Positions 16,749 through 27,806 are shown, counted from the stretch's first letter. The stretch is DNA of 64,000 nucleotides from Candidatus Heimdallarchaeum aukensis (GCA_021513695.1 CP084166.1:1472001-1536000), one strand, 5' to 3'. The notes: generated by a model not told the origin, from the letters alone. Numbers and translations are program-made.

Positions 16749-18650
16749 TTGAACAAAAGTAAATTCCCCTACAAAGGATATTGTGGAAAAATAATAGAAG
16801 TGGATTTAACAGAAGAAAAAGTAGAAACAAAAGATCTTGAGGTAGAAGTAGCTGAACAGTACATAGGAGGAAGAGGGCTAGCTATCCGCTATCTAATTAA
16901 AAATCTCAAACCAAAAATTGACCCCCTGGGAGAAGAAAATATACTGGTAATAAGCACGGGGCCGCTAACAGGCACTCTAGCTCCTTCTTCAGCAAGATAT
17001 ACAATAGCAACAAAATCTCCACTCACGGGAGTAATAGGCTACGCTAACTCGGGAGGACATTTTGCCCCAGAGTTAAAATACGCAGGCTATGACGCCATAA
17101 TAATAAAAGGAAAAGCGAAAAGTCCAAAATATTTGCTTATTCAAGATGAGAAAGTAAGTATAGAAGATGCTTCCCACTTATGGGGAAAGGATACTTGGGA
17201 AACAGATAAAATACTGAAAAGTGAGTATGAATCTTCTAATTTACAGATTCTGTCTATTGGTCAAGCTGGAGAGAATAAGGTCTTATATGCTGCAATAATG
17301 AATAATTTGTCTAGAGCTGCAGCTAGGACTGGTGTTGGAGCTGTTATGGGGTCAAAAAATCTCAAGGCCATTGCTGTTTCTGGTTCAGGATTTGTCGAGG
17401 TACATAACCCTGAGGAATTTATTGAATTTACTAATAAAACATTAGAAAAGATATATGATGACCCTGCTTATCCAAGTTTATCGGATTATGGGACAAGTTT
17501 TTTAGTTGATTTAGCCTATTTAGGAGGAGGATTAGCTACAAACAACAACCAGTTTGGTGTATTTGATGGTTATGATGGTATTTCAGCAGAAACATTTTAT
17601 GAAAAATATAAGGTGAAATCAGATAGTTGTTTTGCATGCCCGATACATTGTGGGAAGTATTCAAAAGTGGAAGAAGGAAAATATGCAGGCATTGAAGGTG
17701 GAAGTCCAGAATATGAATCAATTGTTTGTTTAGGGTCAAAATGTGGCATAGGAGATTTAGCTACAATAATCTATGCTAATGATCTATGTAATAGATATGG
17801 GTTAGACACAATATCATTGGGTGACACAGTTGCTTTTGCTATGGAAGCGTATGAAAAAGGAGTTCTAAAAAAAGAAGATACAGATGGAATTGATTTAACA
17901 TGGGGAAACCAAGATGCACTAATTGAGCTAATCCATAAAATAGCTAGAAGAGAGGGATTTGGAGATCTATTAGCAGATGGAACAAAAATAGCTTCAGAAA
18001 AAATCAATAAGGGATCAGAAGAATATGCATTACATGTTAAAGGTATGGAACCACCAGCATATGATGTAAGAACAGCGAAAGCTTTTGGTTTAGGTTGGGC
18101 TACAGCTAACAGAGGAGCAGACCATTTATCTGCATTACCTAATTTCGAATTGTTAGGTTATCCAAAAGAGAAAGGTGTAGAGTGGTTTGGTTCAGAAAAA
18201 GCAGTAGACCCTTATGCTTGGGAAAGTAAAGCAAGAATGACAGTTTGGCATGAAAATTTTGGCGCTGTAGTAGATTCCGCAGAGATGTGTAAATATACTT
18301 GTTTTTCAGCTTATGCAGTAAAACCAGACGATATGACCAAGTTTTTGTCTTATGCAACAGGAATGGAACTTAGCGAAGAAAAAGTAATGGAGATTGGAGA
18401 GAGAATTTACAATCTAGAAAGATTGTTCAATGAAAGAGAAGGAAAAGCTAAAGATTCTGATTATTTACCTAAAAGATTTACAGAAGAACCTTTGCCCAGT
18501 GGCCCAGCTAAAGGACAAGTAGTAGAACTGGATAAAATGTTAAAAGAATACTATGAAATAAGAGGATGGGTTAACGGTGCTCCAAAAAAGGAAAAACTGA
18601 AAGAACTGGGAATAGAACAATTTGCAACAAAAAAGGAGGAGGAAAAATGA
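16749..18650 (+). CDS. aor: Aldehyde:ferredoxin oxidoreductase (tungsten-containing AOR family)
   Basis: 633 aa. N-terminal 'YCGKIIEVDLTEEKVET..YIGGRGLAIRYL', 'GPLTGT', the Fe-S ligand region 'CFACPIHCG', 'ATANRGADH' and C-terminal 'YYEIRGW' match the AOR family throughout. The only available start is TTG at 16749 (an in-frame stop lies at 16707). Confidence 0.9.
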   Translation: MNKSKFPYKGYCGKIIEVDLTEEKVETKDLEVEVAEQYIGGRGLAIRYLIKNLKPKIDPLGEENILVISTGPLTGTLAPSSARYTIATKSPLTGVIGYANSGGHFAPELKYAGYDAIIIKGKAKSPKYLLIQDEKVSIEDASHLWGKDTWETDKILKSEYESSNLQILSIGQAGENKVLYAAIMNNLSRAAARTGVGAVMGSKNLKAIAVSGSGFVEVHNPEEFIEFTNKTLEKIYDDPAYPSLSDYGTSFLVDLAYLGGGLATNNNQFGVFDGYDGISAETFYEKYKVKSDSCFACPIHCGKYSKVEEGKYAGIEGGSPEYESIVCLGSKCGIGDLATIIYANDLCNRYGLDTISLGDTVAFAMEAYEKGVLKKEDTDGIDLTWGNQDALIELIHKIARREGFGDLLADGTKIASEKINKGSEEYALHVKGMEPPAYDVRTAKAFGLGWATANRGADHLSALPNFELLGYPKEKGVEWFGSEKAVDPYAWESKARMTVWHENFGAVVDSAEMCKYTCFSAYAVKPDDMTKFLSYATGMELSEEKVMEIGERIYNLERLFNEREGKAKDSDYLPKRFTEEPLPSGPAKGQVVELDKMLKEYYEIRGWVNGAPKKEKLKELGIEQFATKKEEEK

Positions 18651-19075
18651 TAAAGAGGATCTTTGCGGATACAAAAAGATGCAATGGATGTAGAATATGT
18701 GAATTAAGATGTTCGTTTGAACATGATAGAGTCTTTGGTACAAAATTGGCAAGAATAAGAATAATAATGAACGAAGAACAAGGAGAATATAAACCTAATA
18801 CATGTAGGCTATGCTATAAATGTATTAAGGCATGCCCTGAAAATGCAATATCAAAAAACGAAAAAACGGGAGCAATAAAAATAGATCATGAACTTTGCAC
18901 AGGTTGTGGAAAATGTGTAGAAGCATGTCCATTTAATGTAATGTTCCTTCATCCAATAAAAGAAAAGGCAATAACATGTGACCTATGTGAAGGAGATCCT
19001 CAATGCGTGAAATACTGTCCAGAGAAGGTATTATTTTACACAACATCACAAGAGTTCAAAAAATTAACAAACTAA
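18647..19075 (+). CDS. 4Fe-4S ferredoxin-domain protein (AOR-associated polyferredoxin)
   Basis: 142 aa with four Cys clusters: 'CNGCRICELRC', 'CRLCYKCIKACP', 'CTGCGKCVEACP', 'CDLCEGDPQCVKYCP'. Its start overlaps the AOR stop by 4 nt (ATGA), indicating translational coupling. Confidence 0.7.
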   Translation: MIKRIFADTKRCNGCRICELRCSFEHDRVFGTKLARIRIIMNEEQGEYKPNTCRLCYKCIKACPENAISKNEKTGAIKIDHELCTGCGKCVEACPFNVMFLHPIKEKAITCDLCEGDPQCVKYCPEKVLFYTTSQEFKKLTN

Positions 19076-19084
19076 ACAAATGTA

Positions 19085-19112
19085 ATTAATTCAGATAAAA
19101 AACTGAATTAAT
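19085..19112. terminator. Perfect 10-bp inverted repeat with an 8-nt A-rich loop, between the convergent ferredoxin and MoaD-like genes
   Basis: 'ATTAATTCAG-ataaaaaa-CTGAATTAAT' occupies the 36-bp gap between two convergent stop codons. This is a candidate bidirectional terminator or processing hairpin. Confidence 0.3.
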
Positions 19113-19402
19113 CAACCTCCAGCAATAGCAGGAACAATAGCAACTAAATCTCCATCTTTTAATTTTGTAGAAAGACCATGTAATAAATTAATATTGCGAC
19201 CATTTACAACAATACGCCATTGAGGTTTTATAACACCTTCATCAAGCATTAACTCATCGAACAAACTTCTCCCAAAAAGAGAAAATAGTTTTTGTAGGAG
19301 ATCTTCTATGGAATCAGAATTAAGATCCATCTTTCTTTGACCAATAAGTTGTTTAATCTTAGAATAGAATAAAACGGTTATAGAAGGAAGAGAAGAACTC
19401 AT
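19112..19402 (-). CDS. MoaD/ThiS-family ubiquitin-like beta-grasp protein (SAMP-like) with C-terminal Gly-Gly
   Basis: 96 aa ending '...LKDGDLVAIVPAIAGG'. The 'VNG..i......t.LkdGDevai.PpvsGG' pattern is diagnostic of MoaD/SAMP. Confidence 0.6.
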   Translation of the reverse strand: MSSSLPSITVLFYSKIKQLIGQRKMDLNSDSIEDLLQKLFSLFGRSLFDELMLDEGVIKPQWRIVVNGRNINLLHGLSTKLKDGDLVAIVPAIAGG

Positions 19403-19518
19403 TAAAGAAATATTAATCTAAGGAAATATTAATTTAACGAAGGGATTCAAAAAAAGCATTTTAGAACAGGAAAAATAAAAAATCAAGAATAAAAAGAAAA
19501 ATAAAAAAACTATTGCCA

Positions 19519-20094
19519 TTAAAAAAGGAAAGAATCAACCCAAGTAACAAAAGGTAAAAAGAAATTGGATAAAGCATTACGAATAATGAAGAAAAAACTA
19601 CCAATTAAGCCACCGATAACAGTTCCACCAATAATGTCAACGAAATAATGAACACCAGTAGCTATACGACCATAACCAACAAAAAACAACCAAATAAGAA
19701 AAATCCAACCTATAGCAGGAAAGAAAAGAACCATAATTACGGAAAGACAACCCATACGACCAGCATGACCGCTAGGAAAACTGAATAAATCACCCTTACC
19801 AACAAGGTCGGGAGGAATTTCGTCAACAGGACGCTTGCGACGAACAGTAAACTTGAGAAGCATAACAATAAGAAAAGTAGCACCCATAGCTAACCACTGA
19901 ATAAGAAGCTCAATTCTATTAATCGGCTTGTCAAAAATAAAACAAACAATACTAAAAAGAAACCAAGGTAAGGTATTGCCCGACTGAGCGGATAGTCGAG
20001 CAAAACGTTTTTTGTTTTCGGACGTTTTGGAGATATAGTAACTGATTGTTTTATCCCAATTACTTATTCGAGTTTTAATAGAACTAAATTTCAT
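19519..20094 (-). CDS. PAP2-family membrane phosphatase (phosphatidic acid/undecaprenyl-diphosphate phosphatase type)
   Basis: The three PAP2 motifs are present: 'KFTVRRKRP' (KxxxxxxRP), 'FPSGHA' (PSGH), 'RIATGVHYFVD' (SRxxxxxHxxxD-like), embedded in about 5 TM helices. Confidence 0.7.
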   Translation of the reverse strand: MKFSSIKTRISNWDKTISYYISKTSENKKRFARLSAQSGNTLPWFLFSIVCFIFDKPINRIELLIQWLAMGATFLIVMLLKFTVRRKRPVDEIPPDLVGKGDLFSFPSGHAGRMGCLSVIMVLFFPAIGWIFLIWLFFVGYGRIATGVHYFVDIIGGTVIGGLIGSFFFIIRNALSNFFLPFVTWVDSFLF

Positions 20095-20797
20095 CTTTAC
20101 GGTTCTAAAAAATTAAAAGATGTTTTTTAACTTTATGTCTGTACTAAAAGTTCGTTAAAAAAAAGTCGGAAAAAAGAAAAAAAGAAAAAAAAAGAAAAGT
20201 AAAGAGATAATAAAAAAACAAAAAATGAAGAAAAAATAATTCAAGTGGAACCATAAAAAGTCAGTAACTAGCGCACTTATTTTTTATAATCACTGAAGAA
20301 CGAAAATATTGACAACAGAAGAAGAAGTGTTTAGAATGTTATACGATGACGTAAGAACTCAAATAGAGATAGATAGGATAGTAGTAATGAGTGATGTAGA
20401 CATAGCTAAAAAAATGATGCACAATTATATGATAAAGCTTAGGAAGGTATACTAGAATTAGGAGGAAGTAGTTTCTATACAAAAGTGTTTAGTGTAAAAA
20501 ATAGCTCAAAGATTAAACAAGTTATCGCTAGGTTTCTCTTCGATAACGAAAATTACAGACTAACTGATTCTAAAGCGCAAGAGTGATAGCTAGCGTGATC
20601 AATCTTGAGGGAATTTTACAGCTCAACCCTCCTTATTCAAATGAAAATGAATAATAATTTCAAACCATATTTCTTTCATCCCATTTTTTTTGTTTTAGTT
20701 TAATTTTATTTAATTAATATTCTTTTAGTTTATTTCAAAAAACCAAATCTCAAGAATTCAGCACCTTCAAGGCTTGTAACTTCAATATTTGAAAAAG

Positions 20798-20918
20798 TGG
20801 TCGGGGCTTTGAGATTCGAACTCAAGACCTGATGGTTTCAACGCTGACGACTTGATCATTGTTCACAAGCGCGATTTCTCTACAGCCATCCGCTCTAGCC
20901 AAACTGAGCTAAGCCCCG
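20798..20918 (-). tRNA. tRNA-Tyr (anticodon GUA) with a 43-nt intron at the canonical 37/38 position; CCA is genomically encoded
   Basis: Reverse complement folds as a cloverleaf: acceptor CGGGGCT/AGCCCCG (C1:G72, typical of archaeal/eukaryal tRNA-Tyr); D-arm GCTC-AGTTTGGCTA-GAGC; anticodon stem GATGG/CCATC with loop CTGTAG|intron|A; variable AGGTC; T-arm TTGAG-TTCGAAT-CTCAA; discriminator A; CCA. An oligo-T run on the coding strand immediately follows the 3' end. Confidence 0.8.
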
Positions 20919-21596
20919 TGTTATTTGAGTTTTACCTTCCACAGTAAATTTGTTTATTCTTACTATCAACTTGCTTTGGTTTTAGCTTTCTATTTTTTTT
21001 TCTTGTCTTTTCTTCTTAAATTTTTCTTTTAATGCCCACTTTTTTTTGGGTATATAAACAGATAAGATTTTTTATTCTCTTAAGGAGCAATTTTTTCCTT
21101 TTTGCTAGTAGATAGTACAAAAACTAGATACTACTGCTCACAGTCATTGCGTCTTGTTCTCTCTTTGTAAAAACTGTTTTGACTGATGAATCCGACTTGT
21201 CTCCTCATCTTTTTTTTTCTTACAAGAAACAAATTTATCTTTAAATTTTTTCTATGACTTTTTCTGAAAAGGAGTATTGTTAACAATGATTAAAATAAAA
21301 GTCATTCTTTTTAACAATATAATAAAAAATGTACCTTGTTCCAAAGAATCATTTCGGAGGAAGTAAGGGTGAATAGTGCTACTTTTCAGTTTAGATGTAT
21401 TTCTTAAGAACCTTTTAAGAACCCCTCCTAATTTATAATTTTACACCGTGAAAAGATAAGCAGAGACATTAAATTATGAGTTTACGTAGACAAAAAAGTG
21501 AAAACGATTAACACAAAGGGTCTTAAAAGTGATAAAAAATATTTTTTCAACAAGAAAGGAAAAAAAAAATTTATTGAAGTGCCAAAAAAGCAAATC

Positions 21597-22220
21597 ATGA
21601 GTAGTTTAAAACTTGAAAACGTAGAAAAACTAAAAATAAATTACTTCAATTGGAAAAATGAAACCACTTTTATCAATAAGATATTACTCAGTATAATAAT
21701 GGCTTGTTTAACGGGATTGTGTGCTCAAATAAAATTCTACCTTCCTTTTACTCCTGTTCCTATCACAATGCAAATCTACGCTGTTTTTCTTTCAGTTTTT
21801 TTGTTAGGTAAATATTGGTCTGGAATAAGTCAACTACTTTATGTTAGCTTGGGTATTATTGGCATACCTTGGTTTGCTAACGGTAAAGGTGGCTTAGAAA
21901 TCATTTATGGTCCTACAATTGGTTACTTGATGGGTTTCATTTTTTCTTCTTTTATACTAGGAATACAAATTGACAATCAAATACGAAAAAAAAGAAAGTT
22001 ATACCTTGTATTAAGCCTTCTCTTTTCCAATCTGTTTTTTATATACGGATTAGGTTTATTCTGGCTAAAAATCTGGTTTGAAATTTTTCAACAACAAAAC
22101 GTTTCAATTATCGAGTTGCTTAAGATGGGTTTATTGCCTTTTATTCTCGGAGATTTACTAAAAGTAATTTGCTCAGTTTTTACTGGAGGACTTATCTTAC
22201 CCAAAGAATTGAATGAATAG
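21597..22220 (+). CDS. bioY: BioY-family biotin transporter (ECF-type S component)
   Basis: 'LTGLCAQIKFYLPFTPVPITMQIYAVFLSVFLLGKYWSGISQLLYVSLGIIGIPWFANGKGGLEIIYGPTIGYLMGFIFSSFILG' matches the BioY consensus (PvPiTlQtf.v.L.g.lLG..G.......l.lgaiGlPvfa.g.gG...l.GPTgGyl.gF). The track ORF (from 21498) has a 33-aa Lys-rich leader that is probably not translated; start placed at ATG 21597. Confidence 0.7.
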   Translation: MSSLKLENVEKLKINYFNWKNETTFINKILLSIIMACLTGLCAQIKFYLPFTPVPITMQIYAVFLSVFLLGKYWSGISQLLYVSLGIIGIPWFANGKGGLEIIYGPTIGYLMGFIFSSFILGIQIDNQIRKKRKLYLVLSLLFSNLFFIYGLGLFWLKIWFEIFQQQNVSIIELLKMGLLPFILGDLLKVICSVFTGGLILPKELNE

Positions 22221-22323
22221 AAATAATACTAAATACCATTTGTATTTTTTCTTGATTCATTTTCATTTAAGCTGATTTTTATCACATTTTCTTTTTCCTT
22301 TAAAATTACCTTTTTAAACCCCT

Positions 22324-22340
22324 GGTAGTGTCTAGTTTTT
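22324..22340. repeat. Left terminal inverted repeat of the IS element (with adjacent TSD copy at 22315-22323)
   Basis: GGTAGTGTCTAGTTTTT is the exact reverse complement of 23073-23089. The transposase reading frame runs to a stop inside this repeat. Confidence 0.7.
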
Positions 22341-23033
22341 ATACCACCTCCTAGGTAAAAAGGAACTAAGGGGAGGATGTCCCAAGCTCTGATGAGGACG
22401 AACGAAATTATAATGGAGCATAAAGAGAGTAAGAAAACCAGAAAGATGAGTAGAGCCATAGACGGCACGGATAGGACAAGTGCAGTGGAGAATAGAATGA
22501 AACCAACGATAACTCTTAAGAGTAGCATTAAAACGTTCAATATAGGAGCGTAAACCACCTTTGATAACGGAGATTTTGATACCTAGACGAAGTAAGACAG
22601 GATACCATACTCCTGCATCTGTAACGACAATACGGGGCTTAAAACCCCAACATTTGAACCAATAACGGAAAGTTAGTAAACATTCAAGATTACTCCGTCC
22701 TTTAGTAATACTAAAACCCAGTAAAGTTTTATTGTAAGGAAGGATCTAATGCGAACCACAGATATATTGAGCCTTGAGAGGTCTTAATCTCTGTTTCATC
22801 TACTACTATAATCTCTGGTATTCCCCCTCTCTCTGCTACAACTCTATGTAAACTTTCCCTAAAGAGCCTGAACTTCTTTACTAATACCATAATGTTTGGT
22901 GTGTTAAACCATTCTTCCATGCAACGGTCCTCAAACCATTCTTTGAACCAATATATTCATAAATAGCTTTTATTATTATCTTTTTGGGGACTCTGCATCT
23001 CTTAAAAAGAGTAGATAGTTTTTGAATGTTCAT
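22332..23033 (-). pseudogene. IS6-family DDE transposase gene disrupted by two compensating frameshifts
   Basis: Total span is 702 nt (a multiple of 3). The N-terminal ~45 aa (MNIQKLSTLFKRCRVPKKIIIKAIYEYIGSKNGLRTVA) and the C-terminal ~130 aa are in the same frame. The central ~65 aa carrying the first catalytic D/E (track ORF 22729-22920) is in a second frame. The junctions are near 22921 and near 22730 (A-run). Confidence 0.6.
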
Positions 23034-23072
23034 ATCTTACTATTAGAGTCCCCACAAATATTTTTGTCGGAA

Positions 23073-23089
23073 AAAAACTAGACACTACC
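23073..23089. repeat. Right terminal inverted repeat of the IS element (with adjacent TSD copy at 23090-23098)
   Basis: AAAAACTAGACACTACC. See IRL. Confidence 0.7.
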
Positions 23090-23156
23090 TAAACCCCTTA
23101 AAGAAAAAGTTTTAAATATCCTATATATTCAAGCTTGAAGGTGCAGTCGATTAAAG

Positions 23157-24731
23157 ATGACCCCTGATTCTACTAATAACACATTTAGTGTTCCTATAAA
23201 TAATAAAAAAATAGAAAATGTTCCTTCTACAATTATTGAATTTATTGAATCTAATCGTTCTTTATTTGATTCTTATCAATTTCCTGTTATGATTACTGAT
23301 GCTGACCGACGTATATTGTATATCAACCCTATTTTTAAAGAAGTTACTGGTTATAGTGACACTGATCTTTTAAACAATTTTTGGAACGATCTTGCTCCTC
23401 CTGCGTCTTTAGGTAAACTGCTTAAATACCATCATATTCGGAAGAAATTTCCGGATAAAGCTCCTAGTTCTTATGAAACTAGCTTTTCTTTAAAAAATGG
23501 TCAGGAGAAAGAGTTTCTCCTTACTATCACTCCATTATTTAATAATTATCTTTTTTTTCTTACTTTTACTGATGTTACTCCAAAGAAATTGGCTAAAATT
23601 GAACTTTCTCGCTCTTATGAACAATATTATACACTTGTCAACACTTCTCCCGATGGTATTTTACAATTAGATAAAGACTTAAACATTATAATGGCAAATA
23701 ATGTTGCTAAACGCTTTATTAAACATTTCTATGGAGAAACTGAAATTATTGGCAAAAGTGTTTTTTGTTTAATACCTAATGATCAGCATAAAATAATCGA
23801 CAATGCTGTAAAACATGCAATTAAGGAGGGGTACTATCGTAATTTAGAAATATCTTTTCCAAATAAAAAAACTGGAACAACTTCTTATTTTGAGATTAAC
23901 ACTTCTGTAGTTTATGATCATGAAAAACCACTTTTTTTCATTGCTATAGTGCGTAATATTAGTGATCGAAAACAAATGGAAAAAAAACTTAATGAATATA
24001 CTACTAAACTTGAACATTTAGTTCAAGAGAAAGCTAGTAAATTAATGGAACAAGAACGATCTGCAATGCTTGGCAGGTTAGCTGCATCTATTAGTCATAA
24101 TATTAACAACCCTTTGCAATATGTTATTGGTAACGCAGAACTCATTTTAAAACTATTAAAAGAGCCTAACTTGGAAATTTCCTTGATTCAAAGTTTAGCT
24201 CAAACACTAATTTCTGGTTGTTATCGTATAGTAGAAGTTTCTGATAAACTTCGTCGAGCTTCTAGAAAAAGTGATGTAAGCATTTTTGATATCGCTATTC
24301 CCATTGAAGTTGCTATTTCTGTTACTAAAGGTAAATGGATGAAAAAGTGTTCTCAGATTAAAGTTCGCTATTTAACTGATGAAACTATTAAAATTAAAGG
24401 AGTAGAATCTGATATTGCACATGTTTTCATGAATCTCATCATTAATGCAGTTCAAGCAATTAAAGACAAAGGCGAGATAGAGATACGTATTTCAAAACTT
24501 TCTTCTCGTAAAGTTTTCATTGAAGTTCATGATAACGGTAGTGGCATTCCCCCTGATATTGCTGATAAAATAGGTAAAGAAACTGTTACAACAAAAAATC
24601 CAGAAGTTGGTACGGGGTTAGGTTTATTATGGGTTTATGACACGATACATCAGCATTATGGAACAATTGACTTTGAAACCAAACTGGGAAAAGGAACTAC
24701 TTTTAGGATTGCTCTTCCTATCGCAAATTAG
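23157..24731 (+). CDS. PAS-domain sensor histidine kinase (cytoplasmic)
   Basis: Two PAS-like modules ('VMITDADRRILYINPIFKEVTGYS', 'DGILQLDKDLNIIMANNVAKRFI'). H-box 'ERSAMLGRLAASISHNINNPLQ'. HATPase_c N/G boxes 'NLIINAVQA', 'DNGSGIPPD', 'GTGLGL', 'GKGTTFRIALP'. No TM segments. Confidence 0.8.
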   Translation: MTPDSTNNTFSVPINNKKIENVPSTIIEFIESNRSLFDSYQFPVMITDADRRILYINPIFKEVTGYSDTDLLNNFWNDLAPPASLGKLLKYHHIRKKFPDKAPSSYETSFSLKNGQEKEFLLTITPLFNNYLFFLTFTDVTPKKLAKIELSRSYEQYYTLVNTSPDGILQLDKDLNIIMANNVAKRFIKHFYGETEIIGKSVFCLIPNDQHKIIDNAVKHAIKEGYYRNLEISFPNKKTGTTSYFEINTSVVYDHEKPLFFIAIVRNISDRKQMEKKLNEYTTKLEHLVQEKASKLMEQERSAMLGRLAASISHNINNPLQYVIGNAELILKLLKEPNLEISLIQSLAQTLISGCYRIVEVSDKLRRASRKSDVSIFDIAIPIEVAISVTKGKWMKKCSQIKVRYLTDETIKIKGVESDIAHVFMNLIINAVQAIKDKGEIEIRISKLSSRKVFIEVHDNGSGIPPDIADKIGKETVTTKNPEVGTGLGLLWVYDTIHQHYGTIDFETKLGKGTTFRIALPIAN

Positions 24732-24769
24732 GAAAATGACATCAATGAAATTTTTCTTTACAATTTATT

Positions 24770-25717
24770 TTATTTTTTTAATGTTCGTTCTCCCACTACA
24801 TACTTAGACTTCATTTCTGTTTGTTTCTGTTTTTTTGATTTTGTTTTTTTCTCTTTTACTTGATAAATCAGTCTATTTTTTGTTTCATCTACTATCAATT
24901 TTATTGAAACATTTATTCCCTCTAGTCTTTTTCTCCACTGATAGCTTAGAAGATTTAAGAACTCTTTTTCATCTATTTTTTCAGGATTTGCTAAACTGTG
25001 TAGAGCTTCAACATCTTTATAATTGTCAAAAATTATTTCATACATATCCTCTTTTTTAAAAATAACACCTTTTAACCCGTAAACATTTGCTCCGATAATT
25101 GAAATATAAGCTACAACTTTAAAAATTCCTTCAAGAAATCCAAATAGTTCATCAAGTTCTTCTTGAAAAAACTCTTTATCATCAAAAAATTGTTTTGCCT
25201 TATTCTTCCCCAAATTACTTGTCAAGTAAGTATAGATTTTATTTATCATTTGAACTCTCATCTTGGCTTCCATCAATCGTATCCAATTTTCATTAAGTTT
25301 TGGTATTTCTATTCTCTCTTGTTTTGGTTCTTCATAAACAGCTACTGTAGTATTATTTAAACCTGTAATTACTAGTTTTTGAAATTCCTTCGTAGGATTA
25401 TTCAGAATCCATGTAATATCTTCATTTTCTGTTGGAGAGATTCTTGTTGAACTATGAATCCTTATTTCGCCATTACTCATTTTCTTTATAAATCGTGGAT
25501 AAATCCTAAACCTTGCCAAACTATTTTCGAAATTATTTATTATCATACTAAAAAAAGCTTGAATTACCCCTTGTGCTGCAAGATCTTCTGATTGTATTAT
25601 AGTTTCTATTTCCCAGTGCCTTTGCTCGTTAACTATTGTTTCCACAGAATAAAGTAACTGATTTACCTCTTCTAATTCAGTTTCGCTTAGATTTACAACT
25701 TGAACCAAGTTTACCAC
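24770..25717 (-). CDS. Hypothetical protein (315 aa), Lys-rich C-terminus
   Basis: Long non-repetitive ORF; no recognisable family. Confidence 0.3.
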   Translation of the reverse strand: MVNLVQVVNLSETELEEVNQLLYSVETIVNEQRHWEIETIIQSEDLAAQGVIQAFFSMIINNFENSLARFRIYPRFIKKMSNGEIRIHSSTRISPTENEDITWILNNPTKEFQKLVITGLNNTTVAVYEEPKQERIEIPKLNENWIRLMEAKMRVQMINKIYTYLTSNLGKNKAKQFFDDKEFFQEELDELFGFLEGIFKVVAYISIIGANVYGLKGVIFKKEDMYEIIFDNYKDVEALHSLANPEKIDEKEFLNLLSYQWRKRLEGINVSIKLIVDETKNRLIYQVKEKKTKSKKQKQTEMKSKYVVGERTLKK

Positions 25718-25814
25718 ACAATCAAATTCTGTCTACAGATGACATATGAAATATTCTTTTTATTTATTTCTGAGGAACTAAAAAAATATTCATAAGAAAA
25801 AAGTTAGTTTCAAA

Positions 25815-27185
25815 ATGTCACTCTTTTTAAATTACTATTACCTTTTTTCTTTAACAATGCCTTCTCAAGAGAAAAAGGAAGTGAGAGAGACAACACTTGT
25901 CTTGGCAGAAAGCGATATTTTAATCAAACATCGTAGAGCATATAGAAACTTAACCCAAAATTATATTATTTCAGAGAGGTTTATCACTCAACTTCCTGTG
26001 ATTAATGCTCAAGCAAAAGATAAATTTGCAGATCTTCCTACAACAATTAACAAAGAGGAAAACAGGATTATTGTTGAATTTAAACATAGAAAACCCATAA
26101 AACCTAGAGAAATATGTGCAGCAGAGTTATCTCTATTAATTGATGACTCTTTCACTAATCGAATTGGCGATTTACGAATTATTGATTGGCCAAGCGAAGA
26201 TTTAACCGATATACATTTTTTACACACAAAACCTTTTTTTGTTTCTGCCATTGGTAAGGTTGAAAAAAACACTATAACTCCAGCCCCTGGATTCAAATCT
26301 ATTATAAGTCATGCTAGAAAAGGTTCTACTATTCGCATTGAGTATCTTCCGAAGACAAAACCTATTCCTTCAATTTTATGGACTGAAGAATATATCGTTA
26401 AAAATGTTTCAGATGAACCTGTTGAAGAATGTTCATTAAAATTTTTAGTCCCAAGAAATGACATAAAACAAAAAGTGAGTATTAAAGCTAACGAAAAAAT
26501 AAAATTATCTCAAGATTCAGATGGAAATGCTTGGGCGAATGTTACTCTCTTTAATTTAAAAAAAGATGAAAAAAGAAAGATAATTTTAGTGTATAAAATC
26601 GATAAAACAAGTTACACATTTTCCAATGAATATGGAAATATTCAGTTTTTAAAAGGTTTATCAGAACCTAGTTCCGTAGGAAGACATTATCTTAAAGGTT
26701 CAAAGCTTTGGCCTGTAAATGACTATAGCATTCAGAAGATTGCAAGAGGTATTCTTGAAGGTCAAACTAATATATTTGATATTATCAAGCTTATTTTTGA
26801 ATTTGTAAATCAGAACTTTACTTATGAAGCAAATGGAGTCAGATTACCAGCTGATGAAATAATTAAGACTAAAAGAGGTGACTGCTCTGAATTCAGTGAC
26901 TTGTTTGTAACTTTAGCTAGAGCCTGCGGTATTCCAGCAAGGGTATGCACAGGTTATTTTTGGGGACTAAATGGAAAATTAGAAGGGCATGCATGGTGTG
27001 AAGTTTTTACTAAACAAGGTTGGATACAGTTAGATTCTTTACATGGCTTCTTGCATGGAGTTTCATTTCAACATATTCTTTTCTCCAAAGAGTCAAATGA
27101 TGTTGATTATCCTTCTTACGTTGTCAAGAATATAGGTGGAGAAATTAATATCACAAAAACATATGATGTAAAAGTAATGAGTTGA
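25815..27185 (+). CDS. Transglutaminase-like (TGc) cysteine-protease-fold domain protein with a ~300-aa N-terminal domain of unknown function
   Basis: C-terminal catalytic triad context 'KRGDCSEFSDLFVTLARACGIPARVCTGY' (Cys), 'EGHAWCEVF' (His), 'GWIQLDS' (Asp) matches the transglutaminase-like core. Confidence 0.6.
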   Translation: MSLFLNYYYLFSLTMPSQEKKEVRETTLVLAESDILIKHRRAYRNLTQNYIISERFITQLPVINAQAKDKFADLPTTINKEENRIIVEFKHRKPIKPREICAAELSLLIDDSFTNRIGDLRIIDWPSEDLTDIHFLHTKPFFVSAIGKVEKNTITPAPGFKSIISHARKGSTIRIEYLPKTKPIPSILWTEEYIVKNVSDEPVEECSLKFLVPRNDIKQKVSIKANEKIKLSQDSDGNAWANVTLFNLKKDEKRKIILVYKIDKTSYTFSNEYGNIQFLKGLSEPSSVGRHYLKGSKLWPVNDYSIQKIARGILEGQTNIFDIIKLIFEFVNQNFTYEANGVRLPADEIIKTKRGDCSEFSDLFVTLARACGIPARVCTGYFWGLNGKLEGHAWCEVFTKQGWIQLDSLHGFLHGVSFQHILFSKESNDVDYPSYVVKNIGGEINITKTYDVKVMS

Positions 27186-27275
27186 AAAATATAACTGTAT
27201 TCAAAATTGATTTGTTTTTAAAAGAATAATTGAAAAACTTTGTTTTCAAAAGCAAATATAAGTTTCTTTTTAGAA

Positions 27276-27806
27276 TTAATCTTCTTCAGTGAATTTTTTT
27301 CCTACTTTTCTTGCAAACTGCTCTATCCTTTCCCAATTTCGATTATCAAGTTGAAAACGGGGCAATCTGCGGAGGATTCTATAGAAGTGTATTTGTGGTA
27401 TGTATAACATTGGAACTCTTCCTCCAAAAGCTTCTTTTTCTATTACTTCTACTCCACTTTCTTCTATGACTTTGTCTAGAAAATGCTCTCTTGCATAGTC
27501 ATACAGGTCTTCTTCACCAGCGAAGCCAGAAGATATAAAAACCGCAACTTTTCTATTACCAAAGTCATTATTTTTTAAAAATTCTTCAGCTTCTTTCACC
27601 CATTTTCCTTCTTTTATCCCACTTCCTATAATTATATGGGGAAAATCCTCTAATTCAGGAAGTTTTTTTCCTTTTTTTATAGTATAAACTTCAACATTTA
27701 GTTTGAATTCTTTTTCAAGAATTTGTTGAATAGTTGCTGCTGCTTCTGTAGTTGCCCCATATCTTGTTCCGTAGGCAATCAATATCTTATCACTCATTTT
27801 AATCAA
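27276..27806 (-). CDS. Flavodoxin-fold protein
   Basis: 'KILIAYGTRYGATTEAAATI' (FMN phosphate-binding loop T/S-x-T-G-x-T) and 'IIIGSGIKEGKW'. Confidence 0.55.
   Translation of the reverse strand: MIKMSDKILIAYGTRYGATTEAAATIQQILEKEFKLNVEVYTIKKGKKLPELEDFPHIIIGSGIKEGKWVKEAEEFLKNNDFGNRKVAVFISSGFAGEEDLYDYAREHFLDKVIEESGVEVIEKEAFGGRVPMLYIPQIHFYRILRRLPRFQLDNRNWERIEQFARKVGKKFTEED

Follow-up and report, generated by a model that had tools for sequence, protein, structure and literature searches.

How an insertion sequence with faultless ends can stand at a new site when its transposase gene is broken is the question raised by a 766-bp element at positions 22324-23089 of a 64,000-nucleotide stretch of DNA from Candidatus Heimdallarchaeum aukensis (GCA_021513695.1, CP084166.1:1472001-1536000; this whole stretch is termed the window, and positions are counted from its first letter). 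The element lies between bioY and a gene for a PAS sensor kinase and codes its transposase on the minus strand. A description made from the DNA alone (the sequence-only reading) had presented it as a recently transposed IS6-family insertion sequence with perfect inverted repeats, an intact 9-bp target duplication and a transposase split by two compensating frameshifts. Its ends, duplication, split frame and recent arrival are borne out below, whereas the family label and the placing of the lesions had to be revised. We consider it probable that this is a full-length, coding-defective DDE insertion sequence that was inserted recently and can be mobilised only in trans. On this account a small DDE element, a distant relative of archaeal IS6-like elements that is present in multiple copies in the Heimdallarchaeaceae, would have entered the spacer between the two genes through a staggered cut that gave the 9-bp duplication and left both ends intact; lesions at codon 51 (a complex 1-nt deletion) and codon 97 (a 4-nt tandem duplication) would prevent this copy from making transposase, and any movement, past or future, would depend on transposase supplied in trans by intact 232-aa paralogues encoded in the same genome.

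The terminal inverted repeats (GGTAGTGTCTAGTTTTT) proved on re-inspection to be complementary at 17 of 17 positions and extend to 24 nt at 88%, and they are flanked on both sides by the 9-bp direct repeat TAAACCCCT (Table 1). With up to three mismatches allowed, the window contains three matches to the repeat motif, where chance alone would give 0.28. The G+C content is 37% in the element and 32% in the 64-kb window. The codons AAA AAC TAG (22332-22340), listed as the last three transposase codons with the stop, lie inside the terminal inverted repeat, so that the 3' end of the gene overlaps the site at which transposase binds.

The decisive evidence comes from two independent JGI metagenome contigs (L015 and L016), derived from close relatives, in which the bioY-kinase spacer is without the element and TAAACCCCT is present once. 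With the element and one TAAACCCCT taken out, the window matches both contigs at 100% over the 221 bp around the site, and the gap between the two genes is 161 bp on these contigs versus 936 bp in the window. This is the comparison with relatives lacking the insertion that the sequence-only reading had proposed, and it establishes that the insertion is real, that its ends and 9-bp duplication are correct, and that it is polymorphic among close strains and in that sense recent. The kinase orthologue on either contig is 96% identical to that of the window, and flank identity ranges from 96.4 to 99.6% over approximately 3.8 kb on each side. Between filled and empty strains the flanks differ by 0.4-3.5%. 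The divergence from L015 and L016 is uneven (18386-22323 compared with 23099-27300): identity amounts to 99.1-99.6% on the left but to about 96.5% over most of the right flank, the first 373 bp to the right of the insertion being 99.7% identical. This pattern suggests a recombination boundary within the kinase gene and not at the element. The third match to the repeat motif belongs to a solo remnant of another copy (21095-21134), which is older than the new insertion because the empty-site strains have the same stretch, at an identity of at least 99% and free of indels.

The transposase reading frame runs from 23033 to 22332 on the minus strand and falls into three pieces. Lesions were defined by alignment to intact copies and are given as they stand in the assembly. 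The alignment confirms two compensating shifts that together give a total of 702 nt (699 - 1 + 4). The first lesion is in codon 51 (W51, approximately 22881-22883), where TATTGGGTA has become TATT-AGTA, a 1-nt deletion combined with a G-to-A change that puts the stops TAG TAA into the N-terminal frame. The second is in codon 97 (22737-22744), where GATCCTTAC has become GATCCTTCCTTAC by an exact 4-nt tandem duplication. The junctions had been placed at 22918-22925 and 22725-22735, the second of the two junctions in an A-run; both positions are wrong, and neither lesion lies in an A-run. The DDE core had likewise been assigned to the out-of-frame middle piece, which does contain D79 as its sole catalytic residue, but D138 and E165 are in the C-terminal piece, where a start codon of its own first appears 28 residues before the end. 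When both lesions are mended, the protein is 3 residues off the intact H. aukensis paralogues P0018 and P0021.

The return to the original frame after two shifts is most plausibly a coincidence. Programmed recoding, with a -1 shift at the first junction and a +1 shift at the second providing a low, regulated level of full-length transposase, would make use of the restored 702-nt frame, and some IS6 members have been reported to "apparently require a frameshift" (PMC7986276). It is nevertheless exceedingly improbable here, given that the intact members, at least nine of them in the same genome, have one uninterrupted open reading frame (ORF), that the lesions are absent from the closest copies and private or rare in the family, that TAG TAA follows directly after the first junction with no slippery heptamer, and that other defective copies carry sets of indels that do not compensate. 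Programmed frameshifting of the IS1/IS3 type was rejected on account of the single ORF in intact copies, the lack of a slippery site and the immediate stops.

Intact copies of the element exist in the same genome. The 50-codon N-terminal ORF is identical to GenBank entry UJG42080.1 (K9W45_06360) of Ca. H. aukensis, and the search for intact copies that the sequence-only reading had called for brought out at least nine distinct intact 232-aa paralogues annotated in that genome. At 93% identity, the reconstructed protein also matches a 232-aa protein from Ca. Heimdallarchaeum endolithica, whose chromosome carries 11 copies (six intact, four with several short insertions and one diverged), and a metagenome scan gave 47 further loci, mostly frameshifted. 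Intact relatives measure 762-764 bp and contain a 699-nt ORF. The window copy is 97% identical to the intact H. endolithica copies L003-L005 and is full length (766 bp versus 763 bp in intact copies); a miniature inverted-repeat transposable element or internally deleted derivative was therefore rejected, the copy being non-autonomous through frameshifts and not through deletion. In the 11 complete copies with a recognisable target duplication this is 9 bp long in seven and 10 bp in four; in AT-rich flanks, approximately three 9-bp duplications should appear one base longer by chance, and the observed lengths fit a fixed 9 bp plus such extensions. About half of the complete copies have no target duplication, which is compatible with replicative transposition through cointegrates or with targeted conservative events of the IS26 type, without being diagnostic of them. 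The paper describing the H. aukensis and H. endolithica genomes reports 11 transposase/integrase families of up to 27 copies each and does not describe this element (PMC8813620).

Some of these copies are of interest for their sites. The intact copies L006 and L007 (H. endolithica CP084167) lie approximately 15 kb apart in opposite orientation, and their targets share TTTGCAAT: the duplication of L007 is ATTTGCAAT, and L006 is flanked on either side by TTTGCAATAGT, with a one-base offset. A preferred target, a target that is itself repeated or an inversion may lie behind this. Two pairs of copies found in the H. endolithica genome and on JGI contigs respectively (L010/L032 and L011/L023) have the same left flank and the same short insertions, with the right flank also common to L010 and L032; neither pair shows target duplications, and both resemble older insertions that are orthologous.

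Because intact copies exist in the same genome, mobilisation of a non-autonomous copy in trans, one of the options offered by the sequence-only reading, is viable. Copy L009 of the sister species shares both lesion sites with the window copy. One is the codon-51 G-to-A change, which gives TGA in the H. endolithica PR6 copies L009 and L011; the other is codon 97, where L009, like L024, L027 and L049, has a 4-nt insertion. These common sites are a hint that the defective allele predates the insertion in the window and hence that it moved in trans. The defective copies L012, L020, L022 and L027 stand at distinct insertion sites with 9-10-bp duplications of their own.

Several observations weigh against this account. 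Overall the window copy is 97% identical to intact copies versus 94% to L009, so that recurrent hits at hot spots or gene conversion are possible. The copy may therefore have been intact at insertion and then inactivated in place, an early pseudogenisation that differs from the preferred account only in the order of events and of which it is a sub-variant. This order is a real possibility, although we lean against it. The repaired ORF is very close to the intact paralogues, the window copy is nearest overall to intact copies, and the divergence of the flanks between filled and empty strains leaves some time for mutation; yet both lesion sites are common to a copy from another species, and two or three lesions would have arisen in 766 bp with the 221 bp around the site unchanged.

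The way in which the assembly was made also counts against a broken copy that moved in trans. For the H. aukensis genome, Illumina contigs were linked by Nanopore reads, and short reads served for polishing (PMC8813620). In an independent Illumina assembly of SRR15988954 the contigs are 100% identical to the window on both flanks and stop 28 and 30 bp into the element at its two ends; the element is thus repeated in the sample, and independent confirmation extends to the two junctions only. Exact-product look-ups of the 63-, 50- and 53-aa ORF pieces in other assemblies gave no match, and those of P0021 and P0027 found no other contig. Such observations, together with the near identity of the repaired ORF to intact paralogues, are what would be expected if the copy at this locus were intact and one or both indels had been added by long-read bridging and polishing with multi-mapping short reads. 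We regard an artefact of this kind as improbable, since an exact 4-nt tandem duplication is atypical of long- or short-read errors, 40 of 59 family copies, assembled independently from separate samples, carry lesions of the same class, the codon-51 change recurs in L009 and L011, and two indels only in 766 bp are unlike raw long-read sequence. A full-length defective copy that depends on intact relatives for its movement is thus preferred.

Table 1. Positions of the element, its parts and neighbouring features in the window
Feature	Position	Strand	Basis or remark
tRNA-Tyr(GTA) gene, 43-nt intron at 37/38	20798-20918	-	intron-aware ARAGORN
Solo 41-nt remnant, transposase-distal end of another copy, 83% identity	21095-21134	-	third match of the inverted-repeat motif in the window
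bioY, upstream neighbour	21498-22220	+	Pfam BioY
Left target-site duplication TAAACCCCT	22315-22323	.	present once at empty sites L015, L016
Complete 766-bp insertion sequence	22324-23089	-	alignment to intact L003-L005; absent from L015, L016
Terminal inverted repeat, transposase 3' end, with stop TAG (22332-22334) inside	22324-22340	+	
C-terminal transposase segment, residues 98-232 (D138, E165), in frame with N-terminal piece	22332-22736	-	
Lesion 2, TCCT TCCT on coding strand, AGGA AGGA on + strand, codon 97	22737-22744	-	
Middle transposase segment, residues about 52-97 (D79), out of frame	22745-22880	-	
Lesion 1, 1-nt deletion and G-to-A at codon W51	22881-22883	-	
N-terminal 50-codon ORF and stop, truncated helix-turn-helix region	22881-23033	-	identical to UJG42080.1
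Downstream arm of stem, AGAGTCCCCA, codons 14-17	22985-22994	-	
Upstream arm of stem, TGGGGACTCT, 12-21 nt before ATG	23045-23054	-	
Family-invariant block CCGACAAAAATATT / CCGACAAAAATA, 23-36 nt before ATG, centre about 27	23056-23069	-	alignment A3
Terminal inverted repeat, transposase 5' end	23073-23089	-	
Right copy of 9-bp target-site duplication	23090-23098	.	
PAS/HATPase sensor kinase, downstream neighbour	23157-24731	+	TATA-like CCTATATATT at 23120-23129

Lesions resembling that at codon 97 recur across the family. When 59 copies were aligned to an intact reference (coordinates L004:1445-2207), the lengths of insertions showed a second mode at 5 nt (Table 2). Insertions of 4-5 nt are found in 40 of the 59 copies, with up to ten in some, and about half are exact tandem duplications, for which the chance rates are 2.5% (4 nt) and 0.8% (5 nt). 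Examples include TCGGT/TCGGT, ATTAA/ATTAA, TAAAG/TAAAG, CTTAA/CTTAA and ATCC/ATCC, in addition to TCCT/TCCT in the window, and different overlapping duplications occur at hot spots (reference positions 346, 347 and 349; 381 and 383; 566-570), the hot spots as a whole falling at reference positions 341-349, 381-405, 436-443 and 554-570. Defective copies (the window copy, L009-L012 and L020-L062) decay mainly by 4-5-nt insertions, with hardly any 4-5-nt deletions, unlike usual pseudogenes, which accumulate 1-nt indels and deletions.

Table 2. Insertions and deletions by length in 59 copies of the element
Length (nt)	Insertion instances	Insertion sites	Exact tandem duplication sites	Deletion sites
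1	28	18	13	28
2	14	8	2	15
3	13	10	0	10
4	33	16	10	2
5	123	25	12	0

Duplications of this form would result if 5' overhangs of 4-5 nt were filled in and rejoined, and they are equally as expected from 4-5-bp target duplications retained after clean excision. Precedents exist for both routes: trapped topoisomerase II leads to 4-bp duplications (bioRxiv 10.1101/2020.05.03.075358; PMC8795545), EndoMS/NucS cuts at mismatches leave 5-nt 5' overhangs (PMC4838380), and elements of the ISH3, IS701 and IS1634 types make 4-5-bp target duplications (PMC2266710). The window family shares the form of its duplications with the topoisomerase II and EndoMS precedents, and any enzyme named for it would be a candidate. 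EndoMS as sole cause is disfavoured, as it predicts a mismatch at the central base between the two units, which is seen in four of 69 distinct 5-nt pairs (14 pairs are identical). A restriction-type cut was discarded, because only hot spot 566 lies in a palindrome (CTCTTAAGAG) and the other sites have no common motif by inspection, as were footprints of Tc1/IS630 elements (TA-NNN-TA), since TA dinucleotides do not mark the sites. Comparison of 7.7 kb of flanks with L015 and L016 showed about seven indels and no 4-5-nt duplication, but as these flanks are mostly coding they are an uninformative control, and no other repeat family is present within the window for comparison.

We suggest, as a tentative proposal that we think rather unlikely to hold, that a process specific to the Heimdallarchaeaceae, of which the 4-nt duplication in the window would be one instance, inactivates copies of the element, either through 4-5-nt staggered breaks that are filled and rejoined or through insertion and excision of an element with 4-5-bp target duplications. 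A possible source of the breaks would be a mismatch-triggered nuclease acting on heteroduplex formed between diverged copies, or another nuclease making staggered cuts. In the literature we found no prior description of such a mode of transposon decay, or of such a repair outcome, in archaea. Were either specific break and fill-in or insertion and excision to be true, these duplications would report on DNA repair and transposon control. To our knowledge there are almost no measurements on either process in the archaeal lineage closest to eukaryotes.

A second family-wide feature surrounds the start codon. The 10-bp inverted repeat that the sequence-only reading had noticed there is present (22985-22994 and 23045-23054) and can be extended to 17 nt at 88%. 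Its arms form the core of the minimum-energy fold (-22.3 kcal/mol, z = -4.0, with none of 200 shuffles as good). The arms differ in sequence between lineages, the pairs being TGGGGATTCTGCT / AGCAGAATCCCCA, GGGGA-CTTGCT / AGCAGGATCCCC and GGGGACCCTGTT / AACAGGGTCCCC. Duplex energies average -19.7 kcal/mol for each copy's own arms, compared with -16.2 kcal/mol for arms swapped between groups, and the gap reaches 6-9 kcal/mol in the most distinct lineages. Since pairing is kept with different sequences and is lost in decayed copies, the stem structure is under selection, and these compensatory changes strengthen the earlier idea of a stem-loop. A family-invariant block lies further upstream (Table 1) and is, by general archaeal promoter geometry, a putative B recognition element (BRE)/TATA box of the transposase promoter. 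If so, transcription from within the element would begin close to or at the ATG, and the upstream arm would be found in read-through transcripts only.

The assignment to IS6 was examined at the level of protein, motif and ends. The family protein scores well below the curated models (31.2 bits against a cut-off of 125 for NCBIfam IS6, NF033587; 26.4 against 200 for the ISC774 model, NF033588) and has no match to Pfam DDE_Tnp_IS240 (PF13610), the only Pfam hit being rve_3 below threshold (24.7 versus 26.5). In a tblastn search against plasmids the best matches were IS6/ISCpe7 transposases at approximately 25% identity (E 2e-6). A profile search of 1.84 billion representative proteins returned 240 proteins at E <= 0.001, among which close relatives (E <= 1e-30) number 11 representatives at 50% identity, mostly fragments. 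The next full-length relatives do resemble IS6: DDE_Tnp_IS240 matches nine of ten, above threshold in eight, and NCBIfam IS6 matches all ten at 78-138 bits, three of them above the cut-off. Comparison of the Heimdall family with these relatives by hhalign gave a probability of 100% (E 1e-47) with D79, D138 and E165 aligned, and in the intact 232-aa paralogues D79, D138, E165 and K172 all align to the IS6-like relatives. A profile search of solved structures gave nothing useful, the best match being a retroviral-type integrase at E 0.57.

IS6 elements are defined as approximately 700-890 bp long with a 213-254-aa transposase that contains a helix-turn-helix (H-HTH) and a DDE domain, with K/R seven residues past the Glu; their target duplication is 8 bp, and their ends are short, generally perfect inverted repeats with GG tips and internal cTGTt and caaa motifs (PMC7986276). 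Archaeal IS6-like elements have the signature E--F---K-R past the catalytic Glu (Harmer & Hall 2019, PMC6807381). The window element agrees in size, one transposase ORF filling its 766 bp, and its family agrees in the transposase (232 aa, HTH, DDE and Lys), which the broken window copy itself does not encode. Its inverted repeats have GG tips and GTGTC resembling cTGTt, with TTTTT where caaa would be. The duplication at the window copy is, by the empty site, 9 bp and not 8 bp. After the catalytic Glu the Heimdall family reads IERFNATLKSYR (F at +2, K at +7, R at +10; pattern E-F----K--R), which departs from the archaeal signature; the nearest relatives (alignment A4) read IERWFETLKDR, which fits it. 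The homology implied by the IS6 label stands through profile comparison, but the label itself is true in a loose sense only, given the failed curated cut-offs (NF033587, NF033588 and PF13610) and the 9-bp duplication. For these reasons, and because of its own motif, we describe the element as an archaeal IS6-like element that would form its own subgroup, rather than as a tested member of IS6.

The surroundings of the element agree with those first described. Its end is 67 bp, and the end of the duplication 58 bp, before the kinase ATG (given as about 60 bp in the sequence-only reading), and the insertion is 103 bp past the bioY stop. The TATA-like CCTATATATT is kept, approximately 22 bp from the duplicated target, and transposase transcription is directed away from the kinase; the insertion might affect kinase expression. 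In L016 (JGI Ga0366836_1002283) a 64-nt deletion in the PAS kinase gene (equivalent to window 23463-23526) leaves ORFs of 149 and 346 aa, and the kinase may be dispensable in some strains. The window also contains a tRNA-Tyr gene that default ARAGORN and Rfam scans of the window missed, giving no match; the relic of an element end at 21095-21134 is approximately 180 bp from its 5' end.

As a single locus, a young broken transposon copy whose proteins are already in public databases carries little weight, and the publication of these genomes already remarked on their multi-copy transposases (PMC8813620). The pair of filled and empty sites, however, establishes where an unnamed Asgard insertion sequence ends and that its duplication is 9 bp, its family provides a conserved, co-varying stem at the start codon, and it is a case in which the label "IS6 family" overstates what was tested. 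The broken copy is ordinary; the stem and the 4-5-nt duplication signature are the noteworthy parts.

In IS10/Tn10, fold-back of read-through transcripts inhibits translation of the transposase. The window family is alike in the base-pairing of a sequence just ahead of the ATG with the first part of the coding region, and differs in that its host is archaeal and its transcript probably leaderless, the transcription start and a corresponding effect on translation being what the block and the stem would predict. Elements filed under IS6 in archaea (ISC774, ISPfu1 and ISH14; clades a-d, PMC6807381) are of the same size class (700-890 bp, compared with 766 bp here) and are alike in their single short transposase (232 aa here) with an N-terminal helix-turn-helix and DDE core, in short, near-perfect, GG-tipped inverted repeats and in the Lys seven residues past the catalytic Glu. 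In contrast, they have an 8-bp duplication and the E--F---K-R signature, where the window family has 9 bp and E-F----K--R. IS26 and IS257 show the same organisation, transposase length and GG tips, from which the window family is set apart by an identity of only about 25%, the lack of caaa and its 9-bp duplication; a further resemblance is that many copies of the window family are without a duplication, which replicative transposition or recombination between copies would explain (PMC7986276). The closest parallel to the broken copy is ISEnfa1, a frameshifted IS6 element with a 10-nt insertion that was judged inactive (PMC7986276) and is likewise full length with good ends and a broken transposase. 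Unlike ISEnfa1, the copy in the window is accompanied by documented intact paralogues in the same genome and by an empty site.

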